64,000 nucleotides of DNA from Anaerolineae bacterium (GTDB taxonomy: Bacteria; Chloroflexota; Anaerolineae; B4-G1; DUEL01), in contig JBDOIF010000152.1 in NCBI GenBank assembly GCA_041082215.1, positions 1,235-65,234 of the forward strand, given 5' to 3'. How positions within the stretch are numbered: position 1 is the first letter of the stretch; each line of letters begins with the position of its first letter. This document shows positions 10,276 to 61,678 of this stretch, in pieces. Made by a program: the position numbers and the translations under genes. The notes below the pieces were generated by a model. That model saw nothing but the letters and a program-made list of their open reading frames with translations. It had not been told where the DNA came from and did not search any database.

Positions 10276-10322
10276 AGCTCACCTCCTCTGAACGTGAAAC
10301 CTGGAACCTTAACCGGGGTTAT

Positions 10323-23903: not shown

Positions 23904-24905
23904 ATGAGGGCAATGCTTCTGCCCAGGCCCCGGCCAGCGGAGGAACGGCCGCTCGAGCTTGCCGACCTTCCCCTTCCCCAACCCGGCCCCGGCCAGGTCC
24001 GCATCCGGGTGCGGGCCTGCGGGGTCTGCCATACCGACCTCCACACGGTGGAAGGGGACCTCGCCCTGCCGAAGCTCCCCCTTGTCCCCGGCCACCAGAT
24101 CGTGGGGGTGGTGGAGGAAAGGGGAGAGGGGGCGGACCGGTTCGAGGTCGGGCAGCGGGTAGGGGTGCCCTGGCTCTACCATACCTGCGGCGCATGCGAG
24201 TTCTGCCGGCGGGGGCTGGAAAACCTCTGCACCGAGGCCCGCTTTACCGGCCTCCACGCCGACGGCGGCTACGCCGAGGCGATGGTGGCCCATCAGGACT
24301 TTGCCTATCCCCTCCCCGAAGGTTTCCCGGATGTGGCAGCGGCGCCTCTCCTCTGCGCGGGGATCATCGGCTACCGGGCGCTCAGGCTGAGCGGGGTGGA
24401 GCCAGGGCAGCGGCTGGGGATGTACGGCTTCGGCGGCTCGGCTCACATCACCATCCAGGTGGCCCGCCACTGGGGCTGCGAGGTCTACGTCTTCACCCGC
24501 AGCGAAAGCCACCGACGGCACGCCCTGGAGCTGGGGGCGGCCTGGGTGGGGGGCGCGGAAGAGGATCCCGGGGTCCGGCTGCACGGGAGCATCATTTTCG
24601 CTCCGGCAGGAAAGCTGGTGCCGGAGGCGCTTCGGGTGCTGGAGCGGGGCGGCACGCTGGCGCTGGCCGGAGTGACGATGACCCCCATCCCGGAGCTGGA
24701 TTACGACCGGCTGCTCTACTGGGAACGGTCGGTCAGAAGCGTGGCCAACTTCACCCGGCAGGATGCGGAAGAGCTGCTGGCGCTGGCCGCCGAGATCCCC
24801 ATCCGCACCACTGTGCAGACCTTTCCCCTGGAAGCGGCCAACGAGGCGCTGCTGGCCCTCAAGCGGAGCCAGATCGAAGGGACGGGGGTGCTGGTCATCG
24901 GATAG
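23904..24905 (+). CDS. Zinc-binding alcohol dehydrogenase (MDR family)
   Basis: GVCHTDLH zinc motif and Rossmann glycine motif GFGGSAH. Confidence 0.85.
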   Translation: MRAMLLPRPRPAEERPLELADLPLPQPGPGQVRIRVRACGVCHTDLHTVEGDLALPKLPLVPGHQIVGVVEERGEGADRFEVGQRVGVPWLYHTCGACEFCRRGLENLCTEARFTGLHADGGYAEAMVAHQDFAYPLPEGFPDVAAAPLLCAGIIGYRALRLSGVEPGQRLGMYGFGGSAHITIQVARHWGCEVYVFTRSESHRRHALELGAAWVGGAEEDPGVRLHGSIIFAPAGKLVPEALRVLERGGTLALAGVTMTPIPELDYDRLLYWERSVRSVANFTRQDAEELLALAAEIPIRTTVQTFPLEAANEALLALKRSQIEGTGVLVIG

Positions 24906-29124: not shown

Positions 29125-29858
29125 GCGCCTGCCCGGAGGGACCGCAGGTGCCGGTGTCGCCAGCGGACCTCCCACACCCGCAGTGCCGCCTCGATCTTGA
29201 CCGGCATCGTCATCTTGGAGCGACCGATGCGCCGGTCCTCGAAGTAGATGGGGACTTCTAAGACGCGGTAGCCGAGCCGTTCGCAGACGTAGGCCATCTC
29301 CACCTGGAAGACGTAGCCCTGGGAGCGGATGGCACTCAGGTCAATGCCCTCCAGGGCCTCCCGCTTCCAGGCCTTGAATCCGGCGGTGATATCTCGCACC
29401 CGGCAGCCGAGGATGATGCGGGCGTAGAGGTTGGCCCACCAGGAAAGGATCACCCGCCCCAGGCCCCACTTCTCATCGGTGCGGCCCCCCTTTACATAGC
29501 GGGATCCCACCACGACATCGTATTGGGGGATATGGGCCAGGAGCCGGGGGACGTCGGAGGGAGCGTGGGAGAAGTCGCAGTCCATCTGCACGATTGCCTC
29601 CGCTCCGTGGGCCAGCGCCCACCGGAAGCCGTCCACATAGGCCCGTCCCAGCCCCCGTAGTCCGGTCCGATGGAGGACGTAGAGCCTGCCGGGGTTTTCC
29701 TCCGCCAGCCGGTCAGCGATCGCTCCGGTGCCGTCGGGCGATTCGTCGTCCACGATCAGGATGTCCAGGTCGGGGACCCCCAGCTCCCACAGCGCCCTTG
29801 CCATGGGGGTCACGTTTTCCGCCTCGTTATACGTTGGTATCACAACGGTTGTTTTCAT
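29121..29858 (-). CDS. GT2 polyprenyl-phosphate mannose/glucose synthase (Dpm1-like)
   Basis: [12 protein letters not shown]...[13 protein letters not shown]...QMDCDFSH are GT2 / DPM-synthase motifs. Confidence 0.8.
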
Positions 29859-43319: not shown

Positions 43320-43334
43320 ACGGAATACGGAGCA

Positions 43335-43364
43335 CGGAGTACGTATTGCGTGTTGCGTACTCCG
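43335..43364 (-). terminator. Repeat-derived hairpin (CGGAGTACG / CGTACTCCG) immediately 3' of fdhA
   Basis: cggagtacgTATTGCGTGTTGcgtactccg lies 2 nt after the fdhA stop; TACGGAA/TATTGCG repeat family. Confidence 0.45.
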
Positions 43365-43365
43365 T

Positions 43366-45471
43366 TTACGAAACCGGCTCCACCCGCACCGCGCAGACCT
43401 TGTACTCCGGGATTTTGGCGAGGGGGTCCAGCGCGGCGTGGGTGAGCGCGTTCGCCGCCGCCTCCGCGTAGTGGAAGGGGATGAAGACGACGCCGGGCCG
43501 GATGCGCTTCGTCAGCCGCACCGCAACCTCGATCTCCCCTCGGCGACTCATCACCCGCACCCGCCGAGCGCCGTCCAGGCCGATGCGGGCCGCGTCGTCC
43601 GGATGCATCTCCACATACGGCTCCGGCGCCTCCTGCTCCAGTTTGGGCGACCGGCGGGTCATGGTGCCGGTGTGGAACTGGAACATGGTGCGGCCCGTGG
43701 TCAGGATGAACGGGTACTCCTCATCGGGCAGTTCCGCCGCCTCCTGGAACTCTATCGCGTGGAAGCGGCCCAGGCCTCGGGTGAACTTCTCCTTGTGCAG
43801 GTACGGGGTGCCGGGGTGTTCGGCCGACGGGACGGGCCACTGCAGGGAGCCCTCCCGGTCCAGCCGCTCGTAGGTGACGCCGCCGTAGGAGGGCGCGACG
43901 CGGGCGATTTCAGACATGATTTCGGCGGGGGAGGAGTAGTCCCATTGCGTATTGCGTATTGCGTATTGCGTATCGCGTGCTGCGTGTTGCGTAAGGCGCT
44001 TGGCCAGTTCACAGAGGATTTCCCAGTCGGCCTTGGCCTGGCCCGGCGGGTCCACGGCCTTCCGCACCCGCTGGATGCGCCGGTCGGTGGCGGTGAAGGT
44101 GCCGTCTTTCTCGGCAAACGATGCGCCCGGCAGAACCACGTGCGCCAGTTGTGCCGTCTCCGTCAGGAAGATGTCCTGAACGACCAGGAAGTCCAGTTTC
44201 TCCAGGCACTCCCGCGCGTGGTGGATGTCGGGGTCGGAGAGAAGGGGGTTCTCGCCCATCACGAAGAGGCCCCGCAGGCGCCCCTCCCCTGCCGCGTGGA
44301 CCATCTCCACGACGGTCATGCCAACCTTGTCGGACAACCCCTCCATGCCCCAGGCGGCCTCAAATCTGGCCTTCGCCTCCGGCGAGGTGACGGGCTGGTA
44401 GGCCGGGTAGACGTTGGGGAGGCCGCCCATGTCGCAGGCGCCCTGGACGTTGTTCTGGCCCCGCAGGGGGTTGACCCCGCCGCCAGGGACGCCCAGATTG
44501 CCGGTGAGCATGGCCAGGTTGGCTACGCTCTTGACGTTGTCGGTGCCGGTGGTGTGCTGGGTGATCCCCATTGCATAGAGAATGGCGGCAGGCTTGTTCT
44601 GGGCGTACATCCGCGCCGCGGCGCGCAGGTCCTCCGCTGGGATGCCGGTAATCTCCTCCACCCGCTCCGGCGGGTACTGCTGGACCACCTGCCACATTTC
44701 CTCAAAGCCCTCGGTCCGCTGCCGGATAAACTCCTGGTCGGCCAGTTCCTCGGTGATGATGACGTACATCAGGCCGTTGAGCCAGGCGACATCGGTGCCG
44801 GGGCGGGGGCGCAGGTAGAGGTCGGCCATCCGGCCGATCTGGACCTCGCGCGGGTCGATGACGACAATTTTCGCCCCCCGCTCCTTTGCTTTGAGGACAT
44901 GGCTGGCGATGAGGGGGTGGCCCTCGGTGGTGTTGGAGCCGGTGATCAGGAAGCAGCGGGTGTATTCGCTGAACTCCGGGATGGAGTTAGTCATCGCGCC
45001 ACTGCCGAATGCGGCGGCCAGACCGGCCACCGTGGGGGCGTGTCAGAGACGGGCGCAGTGGTCCACGTTGTTGGTCCTGAAGACGGCGCGGGCCAGTTTC
45101 TGGGCCAGGTAGTTCTCCTCGTTGGTGCACTTGGCGGAGACCAGGAAGCCCAGGGCGTCGGGGCCGTATGTGTCGCGGATGTGGAGCAGCCGATCCGCGA
45201 CCAGGCCCAGCGCCTCGTCCCAGGACGCCTCCCGGAACCCCCCCTGTGTCCCCCCCGCATGCAGGGGGGAGCGGATGAGGGGGGTCGTCAGCCGGTCCGG
45301 GTGGCGGACGAAGGCGGTGGCGTTCCAGCCCTTGATGCAGAGTTTCCCCCCGCTGACGGGGTGCTCCTTCGCCGGCAACACCCCGACGATTTCGCCGTCC
45401 AGCACCTGGATGTAGAGGCCGCATCCGGTGCCGCAGTAGGGGCAGGTAGTGAAGATGTTTCGGTAGTCCAT
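43366..45471 (-). CDS. fdhA: Formate dehydrogenase catalytic subunit (FdhF/FdhA-type), selenocysteine-containing; in-frame TGA at 45043..45045 read as Sec
   Basis: Tracked ORFs 45043..45513 and 43366..45030 are in the same frame and together align with FdhF: CPYCGTGCG...NNVDHCARL-[TGA]-HAPTVAGL (E. coli: CARV-U-HGPSVAGL). Downstream MGITQHTTG, RGQNNVQGACDMG and a C-terminal KVCAVRVEP are molybdopterin-enzyme motifs. N-terminus placed at MDY (45471); the tracked upstream 14 aa are repeat-derived. Confidence 0.85.
43944..43995. repeat. TTGCGTA heptanucleotide tandem array (about 7 units) in frame inside fdhA
   Basis: attgcgtattgcgtattgcgtattgcgtatcgcgtgctgcgtgttgcgtaag, translated as ...[12 protein letters not shown]..., an insertion relative to the E. 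coli FdhF alignment. Confidence 0.7.
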
Positions 45472-45513: not shown

Positions 45514-47193
45514 TCACGCATCCAGACTCTTGAGAAAATCATTCGCTGCTTTTGCCAGTAATCGCGCTCTTTCCTTGAGAAACTGCTCGTAGTGCTCAAT
45601 GCTCCATTGCCCTTCTAACTGGGCCTTATTTCCAACAGCTTGCGCAAATGAATCGGGGATCAAGTGCTCAAGAAGTAACTGTTCGGAAATGTTGAATTGG
45701 GCCAGGTATTTTGCAGGTGGTTTTCCAGACAACCGGTTCACGTTTGTGCTTTCGTTCAGTACCGTGATGTTTGCCAGAGCATGAATCCGGTCATCAGGGA
45801 CACCGGCACTTCTCAGCACGCTGCGAGGATAAACGTGGTGCCACTGGGGTTCAAACCCACTCACGATTAAAGCACCTGTCCTATCATAGCCAATACGGGT
45901 TTGGTCTACCCAATCCCGCGCTTCTCGGTGAAACACCACCAGATAAAGCATCAGACGCAAGAAACGGCTACCAGCGCAGTCATACCGGCTCAGAAACTCT
46001 TCGGGGGTAATTTCGGAAGGCGCGTGTAAGCGCCCGTATAGGTTCTTTAAAGCCTGATCAAAGTCCTGCGCTTCAGTAATTGCGCGCACGTCCTCGTTCA
46101 AACTGGTAATCGCTGAACCGCTGTAACGGCCATCCCAGTTTGCCAGAAGAAACCAGCGAACAGCCTTGCTAAATCGGTAATTTTTCGTATCTTTCCAGCG
46201 GTGATGTAGCACGAAGAGAGGGATCAGACTGTTAACCGAGGGGAGCAACTTTACTGACATAATCCCGACCTCGGCCAGCCGTTTTCGAACTTCCACGATT
46301 ACTTCTCTGGTTTGTTGCCAAACAACGCTCAGGTTTTGAGGATTCCAAAAGTCTTTAGGGACTTCCTTCAGTCGGGCTCGCCCTTTACCAATGCCAGTCA
46401 TTGTGCGGACGAAGATGCCGGCATCCAGTCCCCATCCTATATCCTCCAACTCGCCGCAAAAGGGAAGATATTCCTCTCGCACCCAGCCTGGATTCCGTAC
46501 AGCGGCCAGCGCCAGAACAACATCGGCTTCCTTCACTCGCGTCCCTTCTTGATTCAACCGAGCGAAAATCTCGGCCACGTCTTCCACTTCATGGTTGATC
46601 CGAATTATGGGAATATCTCGCTCACGGATTTGCCACAAGCGCTGTAAGCGAGCATGGACTTTTGCAAACAGGTCCATCATCTGGGCAGGCTCAGGCTGAA
46701 TGGATGCCACAATCTCTTGAGCCAGTAGAGTTAGTGTCTCAACGTTCTCTGTGCTCAGTACACGGCGCAGGCTAATCCAGTGTGGATCGCGGCGACGGAT
46801 AGGGTTCGGCAGAGCAAACTCCAGATGGTCTTCGTCAGGGAGAAGATTTACCATCACATCATACCGCTCCAGGGCCCTGTTCCATTCCTGTGCGCTATCC
46901 CACCAGTATGGCTTTTGCCCTAAAAGCAGGCAAAGAGCAACCGTCCGTTGTTGCCCATCTACAATCCAAAGCGAAGCCTGCGTACCCTGGGCCGTTTTGG
47001 ACTCCTGGTACGAATACGAAGAGGAGTCCCAGAGCAAAAACGAACCGATCGGATAATCGCGATAGAGTGACTCCGCCAGTTTCTTGACCTGCTCCGGATC
47101 CCAAACGAATTCTCGCTGAAATTCAGGAATATCCACGCTCTTGTTGACCGCCTGTTTGACAATCTCCCGAACTTTCTGTTGCTCAAGTGCCAT
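45514..47193 (-). CDS. GmrSD-family type IV restriction endonuclease (DUF262 ParB-like + DUF1524 HNH-like)
   Basis: DUF262 N-terminus (IPEFQREFVW...DGQQR) and DUF1524 C-terminus (His/Asn motifs); markedly AT-richer than its surroundings. Confidence 0.75.
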   Translation of the reverse strand: MALEQQKVREIVKQAVNKSVDIPEFQREFVWDPEQVKKLAESLYRDYPIGSFLLWDSSSYSYQESKTAQGTQASLWIVDGQQRTVALCLLLGQKPYWWDSAQEWNRALERYDVMVNLLPDEDHLEFALPNPIRRRDPHWISLRRVLSTENVETLTLLAQEIVASIQPEPAQMMDLFAKVHARLQRLWQIRERDIPIIRINHEVEDVAEIFARLNQEGTRVKEADVVLALAAVRNPGWVREEYLPFCGELEDIGWGLDAGIFVRTMTGIGKGRARLKEVPKDFWNPQNLSVVWQQTREVIVEVRKRLAEVGIMSVKLLPSVNSLIPLFVLHHRWKDTKNYRFSKAVRWFLLANWDGRYSGSAITSLNEDVRAITEAQDFDQALKNLYGRLHAPSEITPEEFLSRYDCAGSRFLRLMLYLVVFHREARDWVDQTRIGYDRTGALIVSGFEPQWHHVYPRSVLRSAGVPDDRIHALANITVLNESTNVNRLSGKPPAKYLAQFNISEQLLLEHLIPDSFAQAVGNKAQLEGQWSIEHYEQFLKERARLLAKAANDFLKSLDA

Positions 47194-47233
47194 AGATGTT
47201 TCTCCTTCCGTAAGTTGGCATCCAGCAGAAGCC

Positions 47234-47428
47234 TCATTCCTGCTCCGTTCGCCACGCCAGAATCTGGTGCTGAAGTTCCACAGAGGTATAGCGAGAACCC
47301 AGGTCCCTTAAGGCACCGGCCCATTCAAACCCTGGATGAGCCCGGACCTTCTTTTCACGCTTTGCCAGCAGAAACTCAATAAAATCCCGCACTTCCTGCC
47401 GGATGTCCGCAGGAAGCATCCGATGCAT
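47234..47428 (-). CDS. DUF2281-like small protein (antitoxin-like)
   Basis: 64 aa with QEVRDFIEFLLAKREKK, the DUF2281 pattern. Confidence 0.45.
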   Translation of the reverse strand: MHRMLPADIRQEVRDFIEFLLAKREKKVRAHPGFEWAGALRDLGSRYTSVELQHQILAWRTEQE

Positions 47429-47447
47429 TATCTCACCTCCGCTATCT

Positions 47448-47520
47448 GCCCCTCCGCCAGCGTCAGCGACAGCGGCGGGGCGGCGAAGAGGTCGGCGCCG
47501 GGTGCGTAGCCCAACAAATC
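47448..47520. repeat. 73-bp direct repeat, copy A (about 88% identical to 48104..48176)
   Basis: cccctccgccagcgtcagcgacagcggcggggcggcg...cccaacaa; the first 38 nt are identical to copy B. Confidence 0.8.
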
Positions 47521-47523
47521 GGC

Positions 47524-47772
47524 CTATGCTGGAGAGAGAGCGACTTCCAGGGTTCTCATCCGGCGGTCAACCTCCTCCAGCATATCCTGAATCGCTCTGA
47601 TCGCCTCCTCGTCAAAAAGCACTTCTCCGCACTGGTCACATACCCAGGCCGGGACAGCATCCACAATGAGATGATACCCCTTGCGCGTGACCGTATAACT
47701 GACCGGTTTTCGGACCAGCGTCCCTTTACAATAGAAGCATTCCATGACAATCACCTCTTTCGGGTGCGCCAA
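47524..47772 (-). CDS. YgiT-type (MqsA-like) zinc-finger antitoxin
   Basis: MECFYCKG...VCDQCGEVLFDEEA is the YgiT-type zinc-finger motif. Confidence 0.7.
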   Translation of the reverse strand: MAHPKEVIVMECFYCKGTLVRKPVSYTVTRKGYHLIVDAVPAWVCDQCGEVLFDEEAIRAIQDMLEEVDRRMRTLEVALSPA

Positions 47773-48083
47773 TCAGGTTCCCAGTAGTCCTCGCTGGGCA
47801 GGTAAGCAGTGATGATTGCCAGATAATCCTTCTTCGGCGCACAGACTACGTGCACCGGACGACCCATATGCCCCCAACCCAGCATCAGGCAACTATGCCC
47901 CCGGGCATCCTCCGGATAGTCTTCTATCACTTCGCCGTAGAGAACCACCGCGCGAACTTCATCCGGAGAAATCATCCGGTCAGGAGCATTCATCTGATGT
48001 AAGGCGTGCGGCAGGTAAAGAATCCGCTTCGCAGCAGCTTCTCTAACCTTCTCCAGAATGCTCCTATGGCTCTCGGGTCTCAT
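47751..48083 (-). CDS. DUF4258-family toxin-like protein
   Basis: MRPESHRSILEKVREAAAKRILYLPHALHQMNAPDRMISPDEV...; its ATG (48083..48081) overlaps the TGA of the upstream fdhB-like gene by 1 nt. Confidence 0.6.
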   Translation of the reverse strand: MRPESHRSILEKVREAAAKRILYLPHALHQMNAPDRMISPDEVRAVVLYGEVIEDYPEDARGHSCLMLGWGHMGRPVHVVCAPKKDYLAIITAYLPSEDYWEPDWRTRKR

Positions 48084-48913
48084 CACTCCATACCTACCAT
48101 CGGCCCCTCCGCCAGCGTCAGCGACAGCGGCGGGGCGGCGGCGAGGTCCGCTCCTGGCTCGTACCCCAACAACTCCCCCACATCGCGCCGGATCAGGTCG
48201 TAGAGGACGGTCAGCGGGATGTGGGCCGGGCAGGTCAGTTCGCACTGGCGGCAGCCGACGCAGCGGGCCGCCATGTGCATGGCCCGGATAAGGTGGAAGG
48301 ACGGGAAGGGCGGGGCCAGCACCCCCGGCTCCACCCAGAGCGGGTCCTCCAGCGCGCAGGCCTCGCAGAAGCACTCCGGGCAGATGTTGCGGCAGCCGTA
48401 GCACTTGATGCATTTGGCGAACTGCTCCCGCCAGAAGGCCCAGCGCTCCGCCCAATCCATACTCTCGTACCGGGCGATGATGGGGTTGGGCGAGCCAGCG
48501 AGAGCTGGCGTCCCCAGCGCCACGGCTTGAGGCCAGCCCTCCGTCTTCGGGAAGGGGGCATCGCAGTGGCACGCCTCCGCCTCCTCCGCGGTGCAGGCCA
48601 CCCCCAGGATGTACAGGCGCTCGGGGTCTATCTGATTCCGCTTGGCCATCTCCACCAGCGCGCGCAGATCGCAGGCACGGGCGACAATGCCGAAGCGGGC
48701 CTGCGGGTAGCGCTTCTGGAGCAGGGAGACGACGGACGCCAGAGGGTAGCGAGGGGAGAGAACCAGTTCGGAGAGGTCATCTCCCTGGCGGAAGAGATAC
48801 GGCGCGGTGCCCACAGCCGTCCGCCGCAGGCCGACAACGCCGTCCAGTTCAGGAAGTTTCTCCGCCACGTGGGCGCGCAGGGTGTCCAAAAGGTCGTTAT
48901 CGGTCATCGGCAA
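48083..48913 (-). CDS. FrhB/FdhB-family iron-sulfur protein (putative formate dehydrogenase beta / electron-transfer subunit)
   Basis: An FrhB_FdhB-like core (FGIVARACDLRALVEMAKRNQIDPERLYILGVAC) and two C-terminal Cys clusters (CIKCYGCRNICPECFCEAC; CVGCRQCELTCP). Its last ~25 codons are encoded by repeat copy B. Confidence 0.5.
   Translation of the reverse strand: MPMTDNDLLDTLRAHVAEKLPELDGVVGLRRTAVGTAPYLFRQGDDLSELVLSPRYPLASVVSLLQKRYPQARFGIVARACDLRALVEMAKRNQIDPERLYILGVACTAEEAEACHCDAPFPKTEGWPQAVALGTPALAGSPNPIIARYESMDWAERWAFWREQFAKCIKCYGCRNICPECFCEACALEDPLWVEPGVLAPPFPSFHLIRAMHMAARCVGCRQCELTCPAHIPLTVLYDLIRRDVGELLGYEPGADLAAAPPLSLTLAEGPMVGME
48104..48176. repeat. 73-bp direct repeat, copy B, forming the 3' end of the fdhB-like gene
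   Basis: See copy A; together they bracket the YgiT/DUF4258 cassette. Confidence 0.8.
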
Positions 48914-48929
48914 ATACTCCCCATAGAGA

Positions 48930-49316
48930 TTATCGGAGTCCCAGCAATCGGCGGGCGAACCGCCGTACCTTTCCGGCTATTTGCACGGCTATCCTTGCTT
49001 CTTCCGGAAGGGGTTCTTCGCCGGGATAGCGTACTTCTACAGCATAAGCAGAGAGCCGATCCAGGTCATCCGGATGAATGGGTACGATGATCCCTGCCTG
49101 TTCACACAAAGTACCCAGCGCTGCCAGGTCGTGTGTCTTCGGGAAATCCTGCCCATGGAAAACCAGCAGGGCTTTCAGATATTTCTCAGCGCATTGTTGT
49201 GCATGAAAGCAGGCGCCATACAATAATGGCCTTTTGCGACGTATAGCAGATTGGGCCAGCCAGTAGTCCTCCTCGGCCCGGGTTGCCCACGAGGCAGGGT
49301 CAAGAATGGCGCTCAT
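48930..49316 (-). CDS. HEPN-domain protein
   Basis: HEPN helices with the ...EVRYPGEE motif; paired with the upstream nucleotidyltransferase. Confidence 0.65.
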   Translation of the reverse strand: MSAILDPASWATRAEEDYWLAQSAIRRKRPLLYGACFHAQQCAEKYLKALLVFHGQDFPKTHDLAALGTLCEQAGIIVPIHPDDLDRLSAYAVEVRYPGEEPLPEEARIAVQIAGKVRRFARRLLGLR

Positions 49317-49677
49317 ACAGGGTCAAGCCCTTTTCCAGAATTTCTCTAATGAAGAAATCGCCTTCCGCCAGAGCCTGCTGGATTTCCGCGGGCGTTCTGA
49401 CCAGAATATCCACCGGAAAGGGGCGGGGGCGCAGCAGGCGGGAGACCTTCAGGTACCGCTCGACGGGGGGGGCCACGCTCTCCATCACCACCAGCAGGTC
49501 CACATCGCTATCAGTTGTGGCTCCACCCCGAGCATAGGAACCAAAGAGGACGATTTTCTCTGGCTGCAGCGCATCGGCCAGCCGCCGGATCAGCGCGTGA
49601 AAGGCTCGGGCGTCCACTTCTGGAAACCCCCGGGCCCGAATCGGGGTGGGAAGATCTACAGCCGCTCGTTCAGCCAT
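49300..49677 (-). CDS. Nucleotidyltransferase (MNT) antitoxin
   Basis: LFGSYARGGATTDSDVDLLVV; start uncertain (set at MAERAAV). Confidence 0.65.
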   Translation of the reverse strand: MAERAAVDLPTPIRARGFPEVDARAFHALIRRLADALQPEKIVLFGSYARGGATTDSDVDLLVVMESVAPPVERYLKVSRLLRPRPFPVDILVRTPAEIQQALAEGDFFIREILEKGLTLYERHS

Positions 49678-50063
49678 TCCGAGTGCTCCCCCAGCCAGCG
49701 CCGGTAAGCCGAAGCGACCGCCTCCAGGTCGGTCAGGCGCTGGCTGCAAATCTCGTACAATTCCTCGGGACTCACCTCGTGGTAAAAGTGAACCAGCCGG
49801 TTTCTGTAGCCAGCCAGTATGCGCAACAGAGCCGCTTCTTCGGGAGAAAGAACAGCCTGCTCTTCCAGCCGAATAGCGATCTCCCAGTATTCGCTTACAC
49901 CGGTCCCGAAGCCCTTCGCCAGAATATACCGGCCCAGGTCCAGCAGGGCCTCCAGCGCCCGGTGCAGGCAGGATTCCGCTGTCCAGAGATTGCGCCGATC
50001 GGCGAAAAAAGCATCCCGGTCGGTCAGGGGCAGAGAGCGGATTTCCCCGATCATCCGCTCCAC
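49656..50063 (-). CDS. hepT: HepT-like (DUF86) HEPN toxin
   Basis: RNLWTAESCLHRALEALLDLGRYILAK...YRNRLVHFY; R-x4-HxY motif. Confidence 0.75.
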   Translation of the reverse strand: MERMIGEIRSLPLTDRDAFFADRRNLWTAESCLHRALEALLDLGRYILAKGFGTGVSEYWEIAIRLEEQAVLSPEEAALLRILAGYRNRLVHFYHEVSPEELYEICSQRLTDLEAVASAYRRWLGEHSEWLNERL

Positions 50064-50109
50064 CCAGGCCAGACGATCCGCACTACACGCCGGGAAAGGG
50101 TGCCAGGAG

Positions 50110-50538
50110 TCATACCGGTTTTCCCAGGATCAACGCGATGCGCTCCCGCTCCAGCGGGGCGAGATCCCCCGCACGGCGCAGGACGTAGAGGTCGTACTCG
50201 TCGGCGTCGTCCTCGTCGCGGGCGTGGAGGCGCTCACCCCGGATAATCTCCGCTGCCAGGAAGGGGTCCGCGTCGTCCAGCGAGACCAGGTCCACCCTAT
50301 GGACGCCGAAGAGGTCCTCCAGGGCAATCGCCAGCCGGACCTTGTCGTGGACGGAGAGCCGGAGTCCCCGCGCGGGCTTCACCCCGATGTCCAGGTCGGA
50401 CGGGCCCGGGGTCAGAGCCGGGAGTCCCCCCTCCAGCCACGCCCGGGCCTCCCCGGCCCGGCTGCCGAAGGCATAGAGGATGTCCACGCCGAAGGATTCG
50501 CAGAGTTGCCGGAGCCGCACGCTCCGGTCCTCGTTCAT
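50110..50538 (-). CDS. mntA: MntA-like nucleotidyltransferase antitoxin
   Basis: ILYAFGSRAG...SDLDIGV. Confidence 0.75.
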   Translation of the reverse strand: MNEDRSVRLRQLCESFGVDILYAFGSRAGEARAWLEGGLPALTPGPSDLDIGVKPARGLRLSVHDKVRLAIALEDLFGVHRVDLVSLDDADPFLAAEIIRGERLHARDEDDADEYDLYVLRRAGDLAPLERERIALILGKPV

Positions 50539-50552
50539 TTCTCCATCTCCTC

Positions 50553-50762
50553 CTACTTCCGGTGACGGGTGGCCTCAAGTTCCTCTGGACTCCAGCTCGC
50601 CTCCGGCGGTCGCCTACCCACCACTGTTTCCCGTACCGGCACAATCATCACCACCGGCAGACCGTCCCGCTCCACGATGAAGGTCTCGCCGTCCCGATAC
50701 ACCCGCCGGATCACCTCCCCAAACCGGTTCTTCGCCTCCGTCGCCGAAATGACCGTGGGCAT
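50553..50762 (-). CDS. Phd/YefM-family antitoxin (apparent orphan)
   Basis: MPTVISATEAKNRFGEVIRRVYRDGETFIVERDGLPVVMIVPV. Confidence 0.7.
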   Translation of the reverse strand: MPTVISATEAKNRFGEVIRRVYRDGETFIVERDGLPVVMIVPVRETVVGRRPPEASWSPEELEATRHRK

Positions 50763-50855
50763 CGCTTCGCCTCCTTCCAGATTGGCTAACACAATCCAAT
50801 TATAGCCGACGTTGCCCAATCTGGTAAGCGCGCGTAGCGCGAGATTTATCTTGCG

Positions 50856-51275
50856 CTACAGGCCCAGTTCCTGCTCGATCGGCCCCAGGGCGCGGATGGT
50901 CTCCACGAACTCGGCGGTCACCTGGGCAAACTTGGGGGCCTCCGCCGAGGAGACCCAGTCCAGTCGCAGCCGCTGGGGGTTGATGCCCACGTAGGAAAGC
51001 AGGTTACGCAGCAGGGGCATCCGTTTGGCGGTGCGGTGATTACCGTTGATGTAATGGCAGTCGCCGATGTGGCAGCCCAGCACCAGCACCCCGTCGGCGC
51101 CAGCGCGAAAGGCCCGCAGCACCATTTCCGGCGACACCCGCCCGGAGCACATCACCCGGATGGGCAGGACGTTGGGCGGCGACTTCATCCGCGCGATGCC
51201 CGCGTTATCGGCTCCGGCGTAGGAGCACCAGTTGCACAGAAAAGCGACAATGCGAGGTTGAAAAACTTCGCTCAT
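50856..51275 (-). CDS. mvhD: MvhD/FlxD-type hydrogenase iron-sulfur subunit (HdrA-associated)
   Basis: IVAFLCNWCSYAGAD...VMCSGRVSPEMVLRAF..GADGVLVLGCHIGDCHY. Confidence 0.85.
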   Translation of the reverse strand: MSEVFQPRIVAFLCNWCSYAGADNAGIARMKSPPNVLPIRVMCSGRVSPEMVLRAFRAGADGVLVLGCHIGDCHYINGNHRTAKRMPLLRNLLSYVGINPQRLRLDWVSSAEAPKFAQVTAEFVETIRALGPIEQELGL

Positions 51276-51301
51276 AGCGTACTCCGTATTGCGTATTCCG
51301 T

Positions 51302-51802
51302 TTATGACATGGGCACTTCGCTCAGGAGTTCAGAAAGTTCGGCATCAGGGTCGGTGGTAGAGTAGAGATAGGGCGCGCTACTTTCACACAGTTGTACGAT
51401 ACCGGTGGTTTCCCGCTCCTCAGGAATAATAGAGAGGAGCAGGCGGACAATCTGGGTCAGCAGGTGGAGCCGATGAGCCAGGACAGCCTCTTTCAGGCCA
51501 TGGCGCCCCTCGTAGTACCAGGTTCGGGCCTCGCGGGCGGAGCCCAGGGCGTACTCGTAGAATCGGGCCCGCTCCTTCCCGGACCGGCGGCTGTACCCTT
51601 CGGCGATGTTGGCGGCGATAGAACCCAGGGCCCGATATAACTGGTCGGCCAGGCCGCGCATCCGGGCATCCTCAGCCAGCACCGAAACATCGTGCCAGCC
51701 CAGGTCGGCAGCGAAGAGGGCCAGCCGGTACACCCGCATCTGCCAGAGCGGATCCGCCGTAATCTCCGACGGCACGCTCTGCAACCACTCCTCGTGCGTC
51801 AT
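51302..51802 (-). CDS. Four-helix-bundle protein (TIGR02436 / 23S-rRNA-IVS-protein family)
   Basis: MTHEEWLQS...YRLALFAADL...LGSIAANIAEGYSRRSGKERARFYEYALGSAREARTWYYEG is characteristic of this family; the tracked N-terminal 24 aa are repeat-derived. Confidence 0.7.
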   Translation of the reverse strand: MTHEEWLQSVPSEITADPLWQMRVYRLALFAADLGWHDVSVLAEDARMRGLADQLYRALGSIAANIAEGYSRRSGKERARFYEYALGSAREARTWYYEGRHGLKEAVLAHRLHLLTQIVRLLLSIIPEERETTGIVQLCESSAPYLYSTTDPDAELSELLSEVPMS

Positions 51803-51825
51803 CGCCCACCTCCAACGGAACATGG

Positions 51826-51870
51826 AGTACGGAATACGTGCTGCGTACTGCGTATTCCGTATTCCGTGCT
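51826..51870. repeat. TACGGAA-family palindromic repeat hairpin between the 4HB gene and hdrA
   Basis: ggagtacggaatacgTGCTGCGTACTGcgtattccgtattccgtgctcc. Confidence 0.6.
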
Positions 51871-51877
51871 CCACGCG

Positions 51878-53833
51878 CTACACCCAGACGCCCGCTAAGA
51901 GGCCCTCTATCTGCGCCACAATCTGCTCGTCGGTAAAGTGAAGGCCGGTGATGGCATGGGATGGGCAGGTGGCGACGCAGGTGCCACATCCCTGACACAG
52001 CGCCGGGTTTACCTGCGCTTTCCCTTCCACGCGGGAGATCGCGGAGTAAGGGCAGGCCAGGATGCACTCACCGCACCCCACGCAGGCCTCCCGATCCACC
52101 ACGGCGACGGTGGGCGATATGGTGACCTCGCCCTGGTTGAACAACCGCACCACCTCCAGCGCCGCCGCCCCGGCATGGGCCACCGTGTCGGGGATGTCCC
52201 GTGGCCCCTGGGCACAGCCGGCCAGGAAGACCCCCGCCGTGGCCGTCTCCACCGGCCGCAGTTTGGGGTGCGCTTCGGCAAACCAGCCGTCGGGTGTGCG
52301 GCCCAGGCCGAACAACGGGGCGATGCGGTCCACATCGGGCTGCGGCTCGATGGCCGACTCCAGGATCACCAGGTCCACGTCCACAAACACCAGCCGTCCC
52401 AGGTTGGCATCCTCTCCCTTCACGCGGAGTTTGCCATCCGGCATGACTTCCACCTCGGCTCCCTTGCCCCGGACGAAGACGACTCCCTCCTCCTGCACCC
52501 GCTCGTAGAACTCCTCATAGGCCTTGCCGAAGGCCCGCATATCCATATAGAAATCGTACACCTCGGCTCCGGTCTTATCCCGCACCTGGTGGGCGTGCTT
52601 GAGGGCGTACATGCAACAGATGCGGGAGCAGTAAGGGTGAGCGTTCTCGTCGCGGCTGCCGACGCAATGGATGATGGCCACCCGCTGGGGCTTCTTCCCC
52701 TCGGCGGTGACGATCTCCCCCCCGGTGGGGCCGGTGGCGCTGGTGAGCCGCTCAAACTGTAGCCCGGTGATGATATTGGGCGAGAGGCCGTAGGAATACT
52801 GCGGAAGTTTCGCGGGGTCCCACATCGCAAACCCGGTCGCCACGATGATGGCGCCGACCTGAACTTCGAGCAGTTGATCCTCCTGGGTGTAATCAATCGC
52901 CCCGGTGGGGCAGAACTTCTCGCAGACCTTACACTTGCCCTGGGTAAAGAACCGGCAGTTCTCCCGGTCAATCACCGGGATGTTCGGGATGGCCTGGGCG
53001 AAGGGGCGGTAGATGGCCTTCCGCTTCCCCATCCCCGCCTCGAAGGCTGTATCCACCACTTTGGTGGGGCACTTCTCCTGGCAGAGGCCACAGCCGGTGC
53101 ACTTCTCCTCATCCACCGACCGCGCCCGTTTGCGGATGCGGGCGGTGAAATGGCCCACATAGCCGGAGACCTCTTCAACTTCACTGTAGGTCAGGAGGGT
53201 GATGTTGGGATGCCGACCGGCATCCATCATCTTGGGGCCCAGGATTCAGGTACTACAGTCCAGCGTGGGGAAAGTCTTATCCAACTGGGCCATATGGCCG
53301 CCGATGGATGGCTCCCGTTCCACCAGATAGACCGGGTAGCCCGCGTCAGCGATGGAGAGGGCGGCCTGGATGCCGGCGATGCCGCCGCCCACCACCAGCG
53401 CCGCTTTTGTCACCGGCTCCCGCCGGGGCTCCAGCGGGGCCTGGTATGCCACCCGGAAAACCGCCGACCGCACCAGCCGCTTCGCCTTCTCCGTGGCTGC
53501 CTCTTTATCATCGGTGATCCAGGAGACATGCTCGCGGATGTTGGCCATCTGGAAGAAATAGGGGTTGAGCCCGGCGGCCCCCAGGGCTCGCTGGAAGGTC
53601 GTCTCGTGCATCCGGGGGGTGCAGGACGCCACCACGACCCGGTTCAGGCCCAGGTTGCGGATGTCCTCCTGGATCATCAACTGGCCCGGCTCGGAGCACA
53701 TGTACTTGTACACCCGGGCGACGGCGACGCCAGGCAGTTTAGAAGCCATCTCTGCGACCGCCTCCACATCCACCGTGGCCGAGATATTGATGCCGCATTC
53801 ACAGATGTAGACGCCGATTCGGGGTTGCTCCAT
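51878..53833 (-). CDS. hdrA: Heterodisulfide reductase subunit A, selenocysteine-containing paralog 1; in-frame TGA at 53246..53248
   Basis: Tracked ORFs 53246..53971 and 51878..53230 are in one frame: ...GGGIAGIQAAL...KTFPTLDCST-[TGA]-ILGPKMMDAGRHPNITLLTYSEV..., which aligns with the HdrA consensus KTFPTLDCS-x-C-ILxPKMVEVxRHPNI with TGA at the Cys position. Also an FAD Rossmann motif, four or more ferredoxin Cys clusters, and an N-terminal YICECG. Start set at MEQPRIGVY. Confidence 0.85.
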
Positions 53834-53865
53834 AGCGAGCGCTCCTTCCATTTCGGTCTCAGACA

Positions 53866-55065
53866 TCAGGACTCTGCAGCCTGAATAGACTGCCAGAGCA
53901 GTTCCATTACATCCATTGCCCGCACGCGGATGCGGTTCTGCCGCGCTCCTTCCTGGAGGGTGCGCTTGCACTGCTGGCAGGCGGACGCCAGGATGCTGGC
54001 TCCTGTCGCCTGGATCTGGGCCAGCCGTTTTGCCGCGACGCCCATTGTGACAGCAGGGTCAGCCATCTCTACATCTCCGCCGCCGCCACAGCACAGCGCG
54101 CTCTGGCGAGACATAGACATCTCTCTCAATTCCAGCCCCGGAATGCGGGTCAGTATTTCCCGGGGTGGATCATATACGCCGCTCTTGCGCCCCAGGTCAC
54201 AGGGGTCGTGATAGGTCACCACGCCTTCCACTGGTCCCAATGGCGGGGCGGATTGTGCCATTCGTTCTGCCAGGAACTCGGTAGCATGCTGGAAATGGAG
54301 CCCTCGCACATCCGCCATCTCCGGATACAGGTGGGACCAGGCGTAGTAACAGGACGGACAGGTGAAGACCACCCTTTCCGCGCCCACCCTGCGCACCTGT
54401 TCCAGGTTGTGTCGGGCGATTTCCGCCATCTGATCCCGCAGTCCCGCGACATAGAGCGGGTATCCGCAACACCACTCGTCTCCGCCCAGGGTGGTAAACT
54501 CCACCTCTGCCCGCTCCAGCACTTTGACCGTTGCCTGAGGGATGGAGTACGCGCGCGGGTAGAACGACCCCACGCATCCCACAAAATAAACGACCTCCGC
54601 CGTTCGCCGCAGGGGTTGCACGCCCACCGGTGGGTCGGGCATATTCTGGCTCCATACCAGACGGTTGGCGTTCTCGTCGCCGGAGATGTTGTACTGGCTG
54701 GTGACGGTCTGGCTGACTCGCAGCAGCAGTTGGGGGACTTCCAGGCCCTGGCGCTGGACGTACTCCCGAAGGGCCACCATCGTATCCGTGATCTGGATGC
54801 CCCGGGGGCAACGGACCTGGCAGGACTTACAAACCGTGCAGAGCCAGAAGGTGCGGCTGGTCAATACCTCCGCCGTTAGTCCCAGCTGCACCATTCGCCA
54901 CAACTGACGCGGGGTATAATCCATCGCGTAGGAGGTGGGACAGGAAGCGGAGCATGTGCCGCACTGGATGCAGGAGAGAATCTTTTCCCAGCGGCCGGGG
55001 GTCACCTGCTGAGCAAACGTCCGGTCCGCCTGGGCGAGGTCCAGGATTTCAGGGGGGTTGGTCAT
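53866..55065 (-). CDS. HdrC-HdrB fusion protein (HdrD/GlpC-like; 2x[4Fe-4S] + two CCG domains)
   Basis: N-terminal CIQCGTCSASCP...CTVCKSCQVRCP; C-terminal CCG motifs (DEWCCGYP..., LCCGGGG). Confidence 0.8.
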   Translation of the reverse strand: MTNPPEILDLAQADRTFAQQVTPGRWEKILSCIQCGTCSASCPTSYAMDYTPRQLWRMVQLGLTAEVLTSRTFWLCTVCKSCQVRCPRGIQITDTMVALREYVQRQGLEVPQLLLRVSQTVTSQYNISGDENANRLVWSQNMPDPPVGVQPLRRTAEVVYFVGCVGSFYPRAYSIPQATVKVLERAEVEFTTLGGDEWCCGYPLYVAGLRDQMAEIARHNLEQVRRVGAERVVFTCPSCYYAWSHLYPEMADVRGLHFQHATEFLAERMAQSAPPLGPVEGVVTYHDPCDLGRKSGVYDPPREILTRIPGLELREMSMSRQSALCCGGGGDVEMADPAVTMGVAAKRLAQIQATGASILASACQQCKRTLQEGARQNRIRVRAMDVMELLWQSIQAAES

Positions 55066-59149: not shown

Positions 59150-59238
59150 GTCGGGCGTCAAACGTCAGGCGTCAAACGTCAAACGTCAAACGTCAGGCGT
59201 CAAACGTCAAACGTCAAACGTCAAACGTCAGGCATCAA
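59150..59238. repeat. Tandem array of about 13 GTCAAAC / GTCAGGC heptamers
   Basis: gtcgggcgtcaaacgtcaggcgtcaaacgtcaaacgtcaaacgtcaggc...gtcaggcatcaacc, between mvhD2 and lplA. Confidence 0.85.
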
Positions 59239-59656
59239 CCGCTGCTCGCATCTCCAGCGGGCCCAGCCGGCGCACCTTTTCGGTGAACTCCCGCACCGTC
59301 TGGGCAAACAGCTCCCCCTCCGAGGAAGAGACCCACTTGACCAGGAATCGCTCCGGCTCGATGCCGGTGAACGCCAGCAGGGCCTTGAGGACCGGCATTC
59401 GGCGGGCGGTGCGGTGGTTGCCGGTGGCGTAGTGGCAGTCGCCGATATGGCAACCCAGCACCATTACCCCATCGGCTCCCTCTTTGAAAGCGCGGATCAC
59501 CAGCTCCGGCGCGACCCGTCCCGAGCAGGGGACGCGGATGATCTTGAGGTTGGGAGGGTACTTCAGCCGGGTCGCCCCGGCCAGGTCCGCTCCGGCATAA
59601 CTGCACCAGTTGCAGAGGAAACCGATGATCTTCGGCTCGTAAGCCTGCTCGCTCAT
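59228..59656 (-). CDS. mvhD: MvhD/FlxD-type iron-sulfur subunit, paralog 2
   Basis: IIGFLCNWCSYAGADLAG...VPCSGRVAPELVIRAF..GADGVMVLGCHIGDCHY. Confidence 0.85.
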   Translation of the reverse strand: MSEQAYEPKIIGFLCNWCSYAGADLAGATRLKYPPNLKIIRVPCSGRVAPELVIRAFKEGADGVMVLGCHIGDCHYATGNHRTARRMPVLKALLAFTGIEPERFLVKWVSSSEGELFAQTVREFTEKVRRLGPLEMRAAVDA

Positions 59657-59665
59657 CCCAGCCTC

Positions 59666-59715
59666 CTACGGAATACGCAGTACGTACTACGTATTGCGTG
59701 TCGCGTATTGCGCCC
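59666..59715. repeat. TACGGAA/TATTGCG-family repeat overlapping the hdrA2 3' end
   Basis: ctacggaatacgcagtacgtactacgtattgcgtgtcgcgtattgcgc; it encodes the last residues (AMRAQYATRNT) of the tracked HdrA2 ORF. Confidence 0.6.
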
Positions 59716-61678
59716 GCATCGCGAAGATCGCCCCCATCATCTCCGAAACCAGTTGCCGGTCGGTGAAGTGACGGAGGGTGATCGCTTTGGAAGGGCAGGC
59801 TCCGGCGCAGGTGCCGCACCCCTTGCAGAGCGCATCGATCACATGGGCGACCCTGCGCTCTTTCAGGTATTCGATGGCCGCGTACGGACAGGACTGGATA
59901 CACTGCCCGCAGCCGGTGCACATCAGCTCGTCCACGAGGGCGGTGGCCGACTCTACCTTCACCTCTCCCTGGCCGATGAGGGAAAGGACCCGCGCCGCCG
60001 CCGCCGAGCCCTGGGCCACCGAGTCCGGGATGTCCTTCGGCCCCTGAGCGCACCCGGCGACGAGCACCCCGTCGGTCATCGTCGCCACCGGGTCCAGCTT
60101 GGGGTGCTTTTCCCTGAACCACCCGTCGGCGTCGGTGCTGATGCCGAAGAGACGGGCCACTTCCCGGCTGTCGTGGCGCGGTTCCAGGCCGATCGCCAGC
60201 ACCACCATATCCACCGGCAGCCGTCGCTGCCGCCCCACCAGGGAATCGTCGAACTGGACGACCAGTTTTCCCTCCTCCTCCGGCCCGCGTGCAGCGTCCG
60301 TCACCTGGGCCACCTTCCCGCGGATGAAGTGGATCCCCTCATCCAGCATCCGGTGGTAGAACTCCTCATATAGCTTGCCGGGGGCGCGAATGTCAATATA
60401 GAAGTTATATACCTCGGCGTGGGTCTTATGGCGGATCAGGTGGGCCAGCTTCAGGGAGTACATACAGCAGACCCGGGAGCAGTATTCGTGGTACTTCTTG
60501 TCCCGGCTGCCCACGCAGTGGATGATGGCCACCTGTCGGGGGACCGTTTCCCCATCCCGCAGGACCACCTTGCCGCCGGTAGGACCAGCCCCGCTGAGCA
60601 TCCGCTCCATCTCCAGGCTGGTGAAGACGTTGGGGAAACGGCCGTAGCCGTACTGGGGAATCCGTCGGGCGTCGAAGGGATCGAAGCCGGTGGCGAGGAT
60701 GATGTTGCCCACCTGGACCTCCAGGATGGTGTCCTGCTGGTTGTAGTCTATGGCGCCGGTGGGGCAGACCTTTTCACAGAGGCGGCAACGGCCTTTGGTA
60801 AACCAGAGGCAGTTGTCGCGGTCAATGACGGGGACGGGGGGCACTGCCTGGGCGAAGGGGCGGTAGACCGCCTTCCGATACCCCAGCCCCGCCTCGTAGG
60901 CGGCGTCAACGACTTTCGTGGGGCACTTTTCCTCACACGTACCGCATCCGGTGCACTTCTCTGCATCCACCGACCGGGCCCGAACGCGGATGCGGACCAC
61001 AAAGTTGCCCACATAGCCGGAGACGCTTTCCACCTCGCTGTAGGTCAGGAGATTGATGTTGGGATGCCGACCGGCATCCATCATTTTGGGCCCGAGAATT
61101 CAGGCACTACAGTCGAGCGTGGGGAAGGTCTCATCCAGTTGAGCCATCCGGCCGCCGATGGAAGGCTCCCGTTCCACCAGATAGACCGGGTAGCCGGCGT
61201 TGGCCAGCTCCAGGGCCGCCTGGATGCCGGTGATCCCCCCGCCGACGACCAGCGTGGCCGGGTTGATGCGCACCCGGTTTTCCTCCAGGGGCTGGTGGTG
61301 GCGCACCCTTAGGACCGCCGCCTCGACCAGGGCTTTTGCCTTCCCGGTGGCGATCTCGGGGTCATCGTGGACCCAGGAACACTGTTCGCGGATGTTGGCC
61401 ATCTCGAAGAAGTAGGGGTTGAGACCTGCCTCTGCCACAGCTCGCTGGAAGGTCGGCTCGTGCATCCGCGGGGTGCAGGAAGCCACCACCACCCGGTCCA
61501 GTCCCAGCTCCTGAATGTCCTTTTTGATCAGCTCCTGGCCCAGGCTGGAACACATGAAGCGGTAGTCGCGGGCCACGGCCACCCCCGGCAGGTCGGCGGC
61601 CCAGCGGGCCACCTCCGCCACGTCTACCACACCGGCGATGTTGGAACCACAGTGGCAGATGTAGACGCCGATCTTCAT
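59687..61678 (-). CDS. hdrA: Heterodisulfide reductase subunit A, selenocysteine-containing paralog 2; in-frame TGA at 61100..61102
   Basis: Tracked ORFs 61100..61708 and 59687..61084 share a frame: ...ETFPTLDCSA-[TGA]-ILGPKMMDAGRHPNINLLTYSEV...; the same architecture as paralog 1 (about 75% identity by eye). Start set at MKIGVY. Confidence 0.85.

Follow-up and report, generated by a model that had tools for sequence, protein, structure and literature searches.

The four-helix-bundle (4HB) proteins of the S23p family number in the thousands and are represented by two crystal structures, and to our knowledge they have no known function outside diversity-generating retroelements (DGRs). In bacteria, cyanobacteria among them, arrays of tandem heptamers have been on record since about 1990. 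The intervening sequences (IVSs) in the 23S rRNA of Coxiella burnetii, Leptospira, Brucella and Xanthomonas encode proteins of the S23p/PF05635 family. In Coxiella, two to three tandem GACAGAT heptamers (the number varies with the strain) and one degenerate unit lie upstream of the S23p open reading frame (ORF), and the IVS is bounded by a stem, the first repeat being the site of RNase III cleavage (PMC4990558). The DGR protein Avd forms a pentameric barrel of positive charge, which in DGR ribonucleoproteins binds RNA stem-loops whose sequences adjoin its own gene (bioRxiv 10.1101/2023.10.23.563531). Genome-wide heptamer arrays have been described with the units GGGAATC in Xanthomonas and GGGGATT in Nostoc (PMC4692102) and TAACTGA in Beggiatoaceae, cyanobacteria and Bacteroidetes (PMC4679880); neither report explained what these arrays do or why their distribution is horizontal. 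Here we analysed a 64,000-nt stretch of contig JBDOIF010000152.1 from an Anaerolineae bacterium (hereafter the window), in which a 4HB gene flanked by heptamer arrays occupies the hdrA1-mvhD1 spacer of an hdrCB-hdrA1-mvhD1 operon. We are moderately confident that gene and arrays together constitute an IVS-type passenger cassette of the S23p/TIGR02436/Avd superfamily.

The original prediction, made from the window alone, had placed a TIGR02436 gene between hdrA and mvhD in the first of two hdr modules, with a hairpin of palindromic repeats on either side, and had proposed that this unit is itself mobile. The gene does lie between the hdrA1 stop codon (51878) and the mvhD1 start (51275), with spacers of 75 nt toward hdrA1 and 26 nt toward mvhD1 and with all three genes co-directional, and family membership was borne out by profile hidden Markov model matches to TIGR02436 (66.4 bits, cut-off 24) and PF05635 (57.1 bits, cut-off 33.8). 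Repeats are present on both sides far above chance (CGTATTCCGTA, with at most one mismatch, has 15 occurrences in the window where 0.17 would be expected), but they proved to be tandem heptamer arrays with the unit CGTAYTS or its complement (CGTATTC/GAATACG) rather than palindromic units. The hairpin was recovered in the upstream flank only. There, a distal array (rcU), starting 4 nt past the hdrA1 stop codon, and a gene-proximal array (U), which has homologues of matching position and polarity upstream in related cassettes, are predicted to pair (51815-51873; -32.2 kcal/mol, z = -3.15 against 200 shuffles), with no U-tract after the hairpin and no terminator predicted. The downstream flank (51277-51301) is instead a one-directional rcU array, which directly continues the 4HB stop codon and leaves a single nucleotide before the mvhD1 ATG. 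The only plausible Shine-Dalgarno sequence of mvhD1 (GGAG, 51282-51285) lies within the third unit of this array (ACGGAGT), 6 nt before the start, and orthologous loci share this downstream layout with 4-10 units. A scan of both spacers found no promoter or terminator, and Rfam and tRNA scans gave no match in the 4HB region.

The locus shares with the 23S rRNA IVSs the protein family, a sense-oriented ORF in a highly transcribed host unit, complementary ends able to form a stem, and variable-number tandem heptamers directly upstream of the ORF, such that ORF, heptamers and complementary bounds are all found together in the window. The two nonetheless differ in three respects. The IVS occupies helix 45 of 23S rRNA, whereas the window cassette occupies the spacer of a protein-coding operon (an Rfam scan detected no rRNA in the window, and the host is the hdrA-mvhD mRNA spacer). 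The window ORF has a strong Shine-Dalgarno sequence and is under purifying selection, whilst that of Coxiella is decaying and apparently untranslated. The window lineage also has a local hairpin and a downstream half-array in place of one enclosing stem.

The same packaging was found across the family. Flanks of 4HB genes were inspected in 80 loci from the Verrucomicrobiota, Blastocatellia, Gemmatimonadota, Poribacteria, Chlamydiota, Bacteroidota, Desulfobacterota, Marinimicrobia and others (loci are labelled L001 etc.), and nearly all of these genes had a tandem array on one side and its reverse complement on the other. Flank statistics were calculated for 72 homologous loci, with the paired 120-nt flanks scored for ungapped inverse complementarity (threshold, at least 12) and 360 random segments of the same size as controls. 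Mutually reverse-complementary flanks were detected for 72% of the 4HB genes (n = 72) and 0.6% of controls, and an array in either flank for 74% and 5%, respectively. Arrays occupied 69% of the intergenic gaps adjacent to 4HB genes (n = 111) and 15% of other gaps (n = 197), a 4.5-fold difference. The period was 7 in 64 of 83 arrays and mostly 8 in the remainder, and flank pairs included (GTGAAAC)n...(GTTTCAC)n, (GCGACCT)n...(AGGTCGC)n and (AACTGGA)13...(AGTTTCA)12. The gene upstream of the 4HB gene was co-oriented with it in 55 of 68 loci. These data support repeat-4HB-repeat as a coherent unit across the family. Pairing energies calculated with RNAduplex for 100-nt flanks separated poorly from those of shuffled sequences (median z -2.6), and ungapped complementarity is the more suitable statistic. 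In three Verrucomicrobiota loci (L004, L006 and L008, at approximately 4850-5600), a cassette with GTGAAAC/GTTTCAC arrays was observed between two macB/FtsX-type permease genes, with the array beginning at the stop codon of the first of these, another conserved intra-operon site.

In a neighbour-joining tree labelled with array units, the unit tracked the 4HB clade and not the host phylum. For instance, a clade with AAATTAG units covered Bacteroidota and Marinimicrobia, one with AAACTGG units covered Lentisphaerota, Nitrospinota, Desulfonema and Spartobacteria, and the Thermoflexales clade carried ATTCCGT, with ATTCGTG and AAACGTG in its sister group. The L056 contig encoded two 4HB genes, 2 kb apart and 27% identical, each with a private unit (GAAATTG and TCAAGAA), whilst one of the two cassettes of L076 had an 8-mer and the other a 7-mer unit. 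Where gene-less arrays occurred in other parts of the loci (296 kb), the unit was that of the resident cassette in 11 cases and a foreign one in none.

These observations bear on whether an ordinary 4HB gene has simply come to lie in a genome peppered with arrays resembling the short tandemly repeated repetitive (STRR) sequences of heterocystous cyanobacteria, or those of Xanthomonas. CGTAYTS arrays do recur at six further sites in the 64 kb, including the hdrA2-mvhD2 junction, the fdhA-hypA junction and two coding regions, and the approximately 15% of other gaps that hold arrays belong to 4HB-bearing loci. Most of the 72 loci have inverse arrays, but in the window the repeats are not private to the gene, gene-less arrays of the CGTAYTS family being common there. 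Coincidence is, however, contradicted by the enrichment of arrays beside 4HB genes, by the excess of inverse-complement flanks over controls, by the unlike units of separate cassettes in one genome and by an empty allele without arrays (L053, described below), and this explanation, which we consider quite unlikely, is by now largely refuted.

The 4HB ORF begins with an ATG at 51802, 6 nt after a GGAGG motif. A 190-aa version started at GTG was rejected as a spurious over-extension, because the ATG has this motif and fits the N-termini of the orthologues, which begin at ATG and share the sequence MT(H/Y)EEWLQSVP. An AlphaFold (AF2) monomer model built from 29 homologues (predicted local distance difference test score, pLDDT, 86.8) consisted of helices at residues 23-43, 46-71, 75-98 and 105-131 followed by a disordered acidic tail. 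In Foldseek comparisons the model matched Xcc0516 (2gsc_E; template modelling (TM) score 0.91, root-mean-square deviation 1.5 A) and BT_0352 (2rld_E; TM 0.89), and more loosely Avd (8ube_D, TM 0.80; 4dwl_E, TM 0.77). Residues R57, S61, N65, E68 and G69 were invariant or nearly so across the 29 homologues and correspond to the family motif R-x3-S-x3-N-x2-E-G (GxxRxxxSxxxNxxE of PMC3936711). A homopentamer is known for both 2gsc and Avd (PMC4990558).

The Avd-like fold, a homologous four-helix bundle with a TM score of about 0.8, and the inclusion of Avd proteins in PF05635 raise the possibility of an Avd accessory gene of a DGR, or a remnant of one. No reverse transcriptase domain was found in the neighbouring ORFs (HdrCB, HdrA, MvhD, nucleotidyltransferases, DUF4258, GmrSD and FocA), nor was a template/variable repeat pair found within 16 kb, and DGR identity was rejected on these grounds. 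Sequence similarity to Avd is marginal, both sequence and structure being far nearer to Xcc0516 and BT_0352, and we regard this explanation as extremely unlikely.

A scan of one genome per species retrieved three close relatives (L001-L003, metagenome-assembled genomes (MAGs) of Thermoflexales and Anaerolineae; 81-87% protein identity), all of which had the 4HB gene between hdrA and mvhD, with window-type arrays that differed in unit number (5, 7 and 10 units downstream, against 3.4 in the window). The order hdrA-4HB-mvhD was conserved in at least seven Thermoflexales-like genomes (L001-L003, L081, L090, L092 and L169), and L081 also kept the wider order hdrC-hdrB-hdrA-4HB-mvhD ... fdhA-hypA-mobA. 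Pairwise ratios of nonsynonymous to synonymous substitution (dN/dS) were 0.10-0.15 for the 4HB gene (dS 0.24-0.70), 0.06-0.15 for mvhD and 0.03-0.11 for hdrA, and the dS of the 4HB gene equalled that of its neighbours. Since these values resemble those of hdrA and mvhD, the window 4HB gene is inherited together with its neighbours and its protein is under purifying selection. The window copy is an old, fixed and selected resident of the operon and not recently mobile; retention at this position in all seven genomes contradicts recent movement, whereas the proposal of a mobile repeat-4HB-repeat unit survives in the coherence of that unit and in the gain and loss of cassettes among relatives. 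The L092 orthologue (at approximately 2540-2560) was seen to have a 1-nt deletion within the invariant SIAANIAEG motif, and is either a pseudogene or an assembly error.

Gain or loss of whole cassettes was apparent at several junctions. The second cassette of L056 and its arrays were missing from L053 (hdrA 86% identical), where the two genes that flank the cassette in L056 are separated by an array-free spacer of 34 nt. As this empty site holds neither, the arrays were gained or lost together with the gene, and no target-site duplication was visible at this filled/empty pair. Metagenomic mvhD1 orthologues comprised filled junctions (L090 and L092) and junctions lacking the 4HB gene (L091, L094 and L096; mvhD 85-86% identical), with spacers of 69-88 nt in the latter; that of L091 contained only a degenerate inverted repeat. 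In the weakly supported mvhD tree, L091, L094 and L096 formed the sister clade of the filled genomes, and the topology favours loss of the 4HB gene from these three because filled L081 branches outside both clades. Simple excision of a window-type cassette was ruled out as the source of the empty junctions, as their hairpins have other heptamer units. In L169, mvhD was 91% identical to that of the window and the 4HB protein only 71%, which could reflect exchange of the cassette at the site, or faster evolution.

At the L090 junction a hairpin lies on each side of the gene ([rcU][U]-4HB-[rcU][U]), as would be expected from integration of [U]-gene-[rcU] into the loop of a pre-existing [rcU][U] hairpin, or from Campbell-type recombination at such a hairpin; the arrangement is suggestive only. 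Gene-less hairpins had the polarity [rcU][U] in all five typed cases (three in the window, L094 and L096), whilst automated typing of [rcU][U] against [U][rcU] by strict matching in the 80 loci found no gene-less hairpins.

Related cassettes occupied other sites. The closest non-orthologous relatives form a clade of 155-aa proteins, 62-65% identical and sister to the window clade, which occurs in three unrelated contexts (after holB, after GDSL lipase genes, and between larA-N and gnd), each member lying between (CGTGTTG)n and (CAACACG)n. In the Marinimicrobia-like L053 (4924-5415) and L056 (4940-5428), the order hdrA-4HB-mvhD was again present, with GAAATTN/NAATTTC arrays; their 4HB belongs to the distant GAAATTG clade and therefore arrived separately at hdrA-mvhD. 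A metagenome sample had a 4HB gene in only 2 of approximately 58 measurable hdrA-mvhD junctions, most spacers being between -10 and +30 nt, and arrays or palindromes were held by other such junctions in L113, L118 and L121.

Because the gene is so rare at these junctions and is missing from module 2 of the window, a functional role in Hdr is unlikely. The corresponding explanation, that 4HB is an accessory or regulator of the HdrABC-MvhD electron-bifurcating complex kept for stoichiometric co-expression, would account for the recurrence of hdrA-4HB-mvhD in Thermoflexales-like Anaerolineae, for its independent recurrence in the Marinimicrobia-like loci with a different 4HB clade, and for purifying selection as strong as that on hdrA and mvhD. 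It does not agree with the absence of the gene from the sister clade L091, L094 and L096, nor with the close relatives after holB and GDSL lipase genes, at larA-N/gnd and between macB-like genes, nor with the family's presence within rRNA IVSs and cas operons (PMC4990558, PMC3936711). In module 2, as the original prediction had stated, no gene intervenes and mvhD2 follows hdrA2 by approximately 30 nt; the comparison that it had suggested with this junction revealed a gene-less array hairpin (Table 1).

A further possibility is that the cassette is an autonomous mobile element, active at present, whose own 4HB protein carries out excision and insertion at the arrays. A mobility function was proposed for the IVS ORF by Ralph and McClelland (as cited in PMC4990558), and cassette-level gain and loss, as well as 4HB clades and units common to different phyla, are compatible with it. 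The window copy has, however, remained at one site across genomes at dS values of up to 0.7, there is a single 4HB copy in 64 kb, the fold has no known nuclease or recombinase chemistry and the L053/L056 junction shows no visible target-site duplication, which make this very unlikely. No recombinase or other mobility gene was found to belong to the repeat-4HB-repeat unit, no transposase or REP-associated tyrosine transposase (RAYT; REP, repetitive extragenic palindrome) was found in or beside the cassette, and it does not qualify as a transposon, miniature inverted-repeat transposable element (MITE) or REPtron.

For a passenger cassette of IVS type, the most likely mechanism, judged by analogy with the known systems, would combine read-through transcription, punctuation of the mRNA by RNase III or by stem stability, and a protein that binds its own arrays. 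The cassette would have no promoter or terminator of its own, would be read through from the hdr promoter and would be translated from its own Shine-Dalgarno sequence. Insertion would not be polar, because the downstream array would supply the Shine-Dalgarno sequence of mvhD1. The array stems may form double-stranded RNA cleavable by RNase III, as in the Coxiella 23S rRNA IVS, and may punctuate or stabilise the hdrA, 4HB and mvhD segments of the transcript; given tandem units, a stem could re-form in any register after slippage. Like Xcc0516 and Avd, the 4HB protein probably forms a pentameric barrel. Because Avd binds RNA stem-loops encoded beside it, the 4HB protein may bind stem-loops formed by arrays of its own family, both in cis and at gene-less arrays elsewhere in the genome. 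Over evolutionary time the cassette would move or be exchanged via recombination at the arrays, with no enzyme of its own.

Several observations weigh against this reading. The gene-proximal upstream array pairs with the downstream array at -27.9 kcal/mol and with the distal array at -32.2 kcal/mol; as the upstream arrays pair with each other at least as well, a gene-enclosing stem is not the predicted ground state at the window locus. Folded as a whole, the 631-nt spacer-gene-spacer RNA is unexceptional (z = -1.4), and for this reason no gene-enclosing stem is claimed here. Array copy numbers taken from short-read MAG assemblies may be unreliable. The empty junctions of L094 and L096 hold gene-less hairpins (TGACGTT/AAACGTC and TCACGTT/AAACGTG, respectively), and the gain/loss scenario depends on an mvhD tree with weak support (the empty clade has a bootstrap value of 54%). 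Lastly, the S23p ORF decays and is apparently untranslated in Coxiella (PMC4990558), whereas that of the window is constrained, and the role of the protein may therefore differ between contexts.

Other repeat systems resemble the cassette in part. Like the STRR, Xanthomonas, Nostoc and TAACTGA arrays, its arrays are mostly intergenic 7-nt tandems, often in convergent pairs able to form hairpins, which keep their position whilst copy number varies among relatives, occasionally occur in-frame within genes, and have a patchy distribution that looks horizontal; the reports on those arrays draw no connection to 4HB/S23p genes (PMC4692102, PMC4679880). REPs, the bacterial interspersed mosaic elements (BIMEs) and MITEs are also short, structured, dispersed intergenic repeats in which gene-less copies outnumber gene-bearing ones. 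REPs are nonetheless single imperfect palindromes that depend on RAYT transposases for their movement, and MITEs are characterised by terminal inverted repeats with target duplications, whereas the cassette arms are microsatellite-like tandem arrays with no transposase associated. Integron cassettes (an ORF with an attC hairpin) similarly comprise a promoter-less single ORF with structured imperfect inverted repeats, co-directional in a transcribed site. The 4HB cassettes differ from these in having no integrase or attI, in being scattered singly in operon spacers and in encoding one protein family throughout.

The CGTAYTS family occupied eight places in the window, comprising the two 4HB flanks and six others, two of which are intragenic; these include gene-less hairpins at hdrA2-mvhD2 and fdhA-hypA (Table 1) and a short array upstream of fdhA. 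A second family was represented by (TGACGTT)x11 at 59156-59230, which fills the spacer between mvhD2 and an lplA-like gene, and by a 5-unit copy at 10322-10356, and a third by an inverted pair, (GCTGGTT)n then (ACCAGYG)n, at a single site (26704-26772) inside a 1426-aa ORF. With tandem 7-nt units in several dispersed, mainly intergenic families (CGTAYTS at 8 sites, TGACGTT at 2 and GCTGGTT/ACCAGYG at 1), the window arrays are of STRR type. The TGACGTT unit was also noted in the gene-less hdrA-mvhD hairpin of L094 and resembles those of the Chlamydiota 4HB cassettes L042 and L043.

Some arrays are translated. The C-terminal tail of HdrA2 (QYATRNT*) is encoded by a CGTAYTS array (59687-59712), and the HdrA1 tail also extends into an array in L081 and L169. 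An in-frame CGTAYTS array (27889-27916) lies in the 1426-aa ORF (24895-29175, minus strand), which encodes a large membrane protein, and a translated, in-frame heptamer array (43948-43989) lies in a formate dehydrogenase-like (fdhA-like) ORF (43366-45030, minus strand). In the L081 orthologue of the latter (8270-8320), the same protein loop contains a hairpin of CAGGTTC x3 / AACCTGA x3, translated as ISGSRFQVPNLQPET. As the window and L081 arrays differ, one fdhA loop has been colonised by two array families with the frame intact.

Table 1. Coordinates of the 4HB cassette, the two hdr modules and selected neighbouring features in the window.
Feature	Position	Strand	Remarks
HdrC/HdrB fusion	53866-55065	minus	Fer4 and CCG domains
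hdrA1, upstream host gene	51878..53866	minus	In-frame TGA 53246-53248
Distal upstream array (rcU), 5' hairpin arm	51840..51873	minus	ACGGAAT ACGGAAT ACGCAGT ACGCAGC (coding strand)
Gene-proximal upstream array (U), 3' hairpin arm	51815..51838	minus	CGTATTC CGTACTC CATGTTC CGT (coding strand)
Shine-Dalgarno sequence GGAGG of the 4HB gene	51809..51813	minus	GGAGG/GAGAGG equivalents in orthologues
4HB coding sequence, 166 aa	51302..51802	minus	TIGR02436/PF05635/'S23p'; stop TAA 51302-51304
Downstream array (rcU), 3.4 units, one-directional	51277..51301	minus	ACGGAAT ACGCAAT ACGGAGT ACGC
mvhD1 (FlpD), downstream host gene	50856..51275	minus	PF02662, 181 bits
hdrA2	59687-61678	minus	
Gene-less CGTAYTS-family hairpin, hdrA2-mvhD2 junction	59664..59712	minus	Overlaps hdrA2 stop codon
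mvhD2	59228-59656	minus	
Gene-less CGTAYTS-family hairpin between fdhA and hypA	43320..43365	minus	
MNT-type nucleotidyltransferases (two)	49300-49749, 50110-50538		Island between mvhD1 and fdhA
DUF4258 protein	47751-48572		Island between mvhD1 and fdhA
GmrSD-type restriction endonuclease	45514-47193		Island between mvhD1 and fdhA

Three genes of the window each contain one in-frame TGA on the minus strand, namely hdrA1 (Table 1), hdrA2 (61100-61102) and the fdhA-like gene (45043-45045). These codons coincide with a known selenocysteine site (DCS(T/A)*ILGPK in both hdrA genes, DCST*ILGPK in hdrA1, and HCARL* in fdhA), and three selenoproteins are evidently made from one 20-kb stretch of the host genome, as judged from sequence; the hdrA1 orthologue in L081 is annotated as a 665-aa product. 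Between mvhD1 and fdhA lies an island (45514-50800) of toxin-antitoxin and defence-type genes, whose place is taken by a single 272-aa Fe-S protein in L081 and by an MNT/HepT pair in L169. A 77-nt direct repeat (47444-47520 and 48099-48175, 87% identical) marks two paralogous ORFs of this island. The sole Rfam match in the window was a bacterial large signal recognition particle RNA (RF01854, 172 bits) at 14123-14386 on the minus strand.

4HB genes within cas operons have been noted without comment on repeats (PMC3936711). In the literature searched, no link between PF05635/TIGR02436 genes and flanking tandem arrays was found beyond the Coxiella IVS, subscription journals having been mostly outside the search, such that earlier descriptions may exist; the name 'TIGR02436' appeared in no paper searched, coverage again being incomplete. 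We read the window feature as an IVS-type cassette in an operon; as far as these searches went, what is apparently undescribed is the association of 4HB genes with heptamer arrays across the family.

This extends the concept of the IVS from rRNA to ordinary operons and accounts for small 4HB genes that interrupt conserved operons (hdr, cas and macB) without polar effects. It also calls for caution in annotation, in that 4HB genes should not be taken for subunits of the host pathway. More tentatively, and with rather less confidence than we place in the cassette, 4HB/S23p genes and genome-wide heptamer arrays of STRR type, as found in cyanobacteria, Xanthomonas, Beggiatoaceae, Bacteroidota, Chloroflexota and others, could be two halves of one system, in which every paralogue would be specific for stem-loops of its own array family. 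The cassette with its gene in a hairpin would then represent the 'autonomous' form, from which the gene-less arrays would derive by dispersal, and the 23S rRNA IVS would be no more than a special case that landed in rRNA. If true, this would be a widespread and unrecognised class of protein-RNA (or protein-DNA) repeats, spreading horizontally and shaping the processing of operon mRNAs. Since the unit travels with its gene, the 4HB protein is a concrete and testable candidate for the reader of the arrays, and two old puzzles, the function of S23p/4HB proteins and the origin, function and horizontal spread of heptamer arrays, may share one answer.

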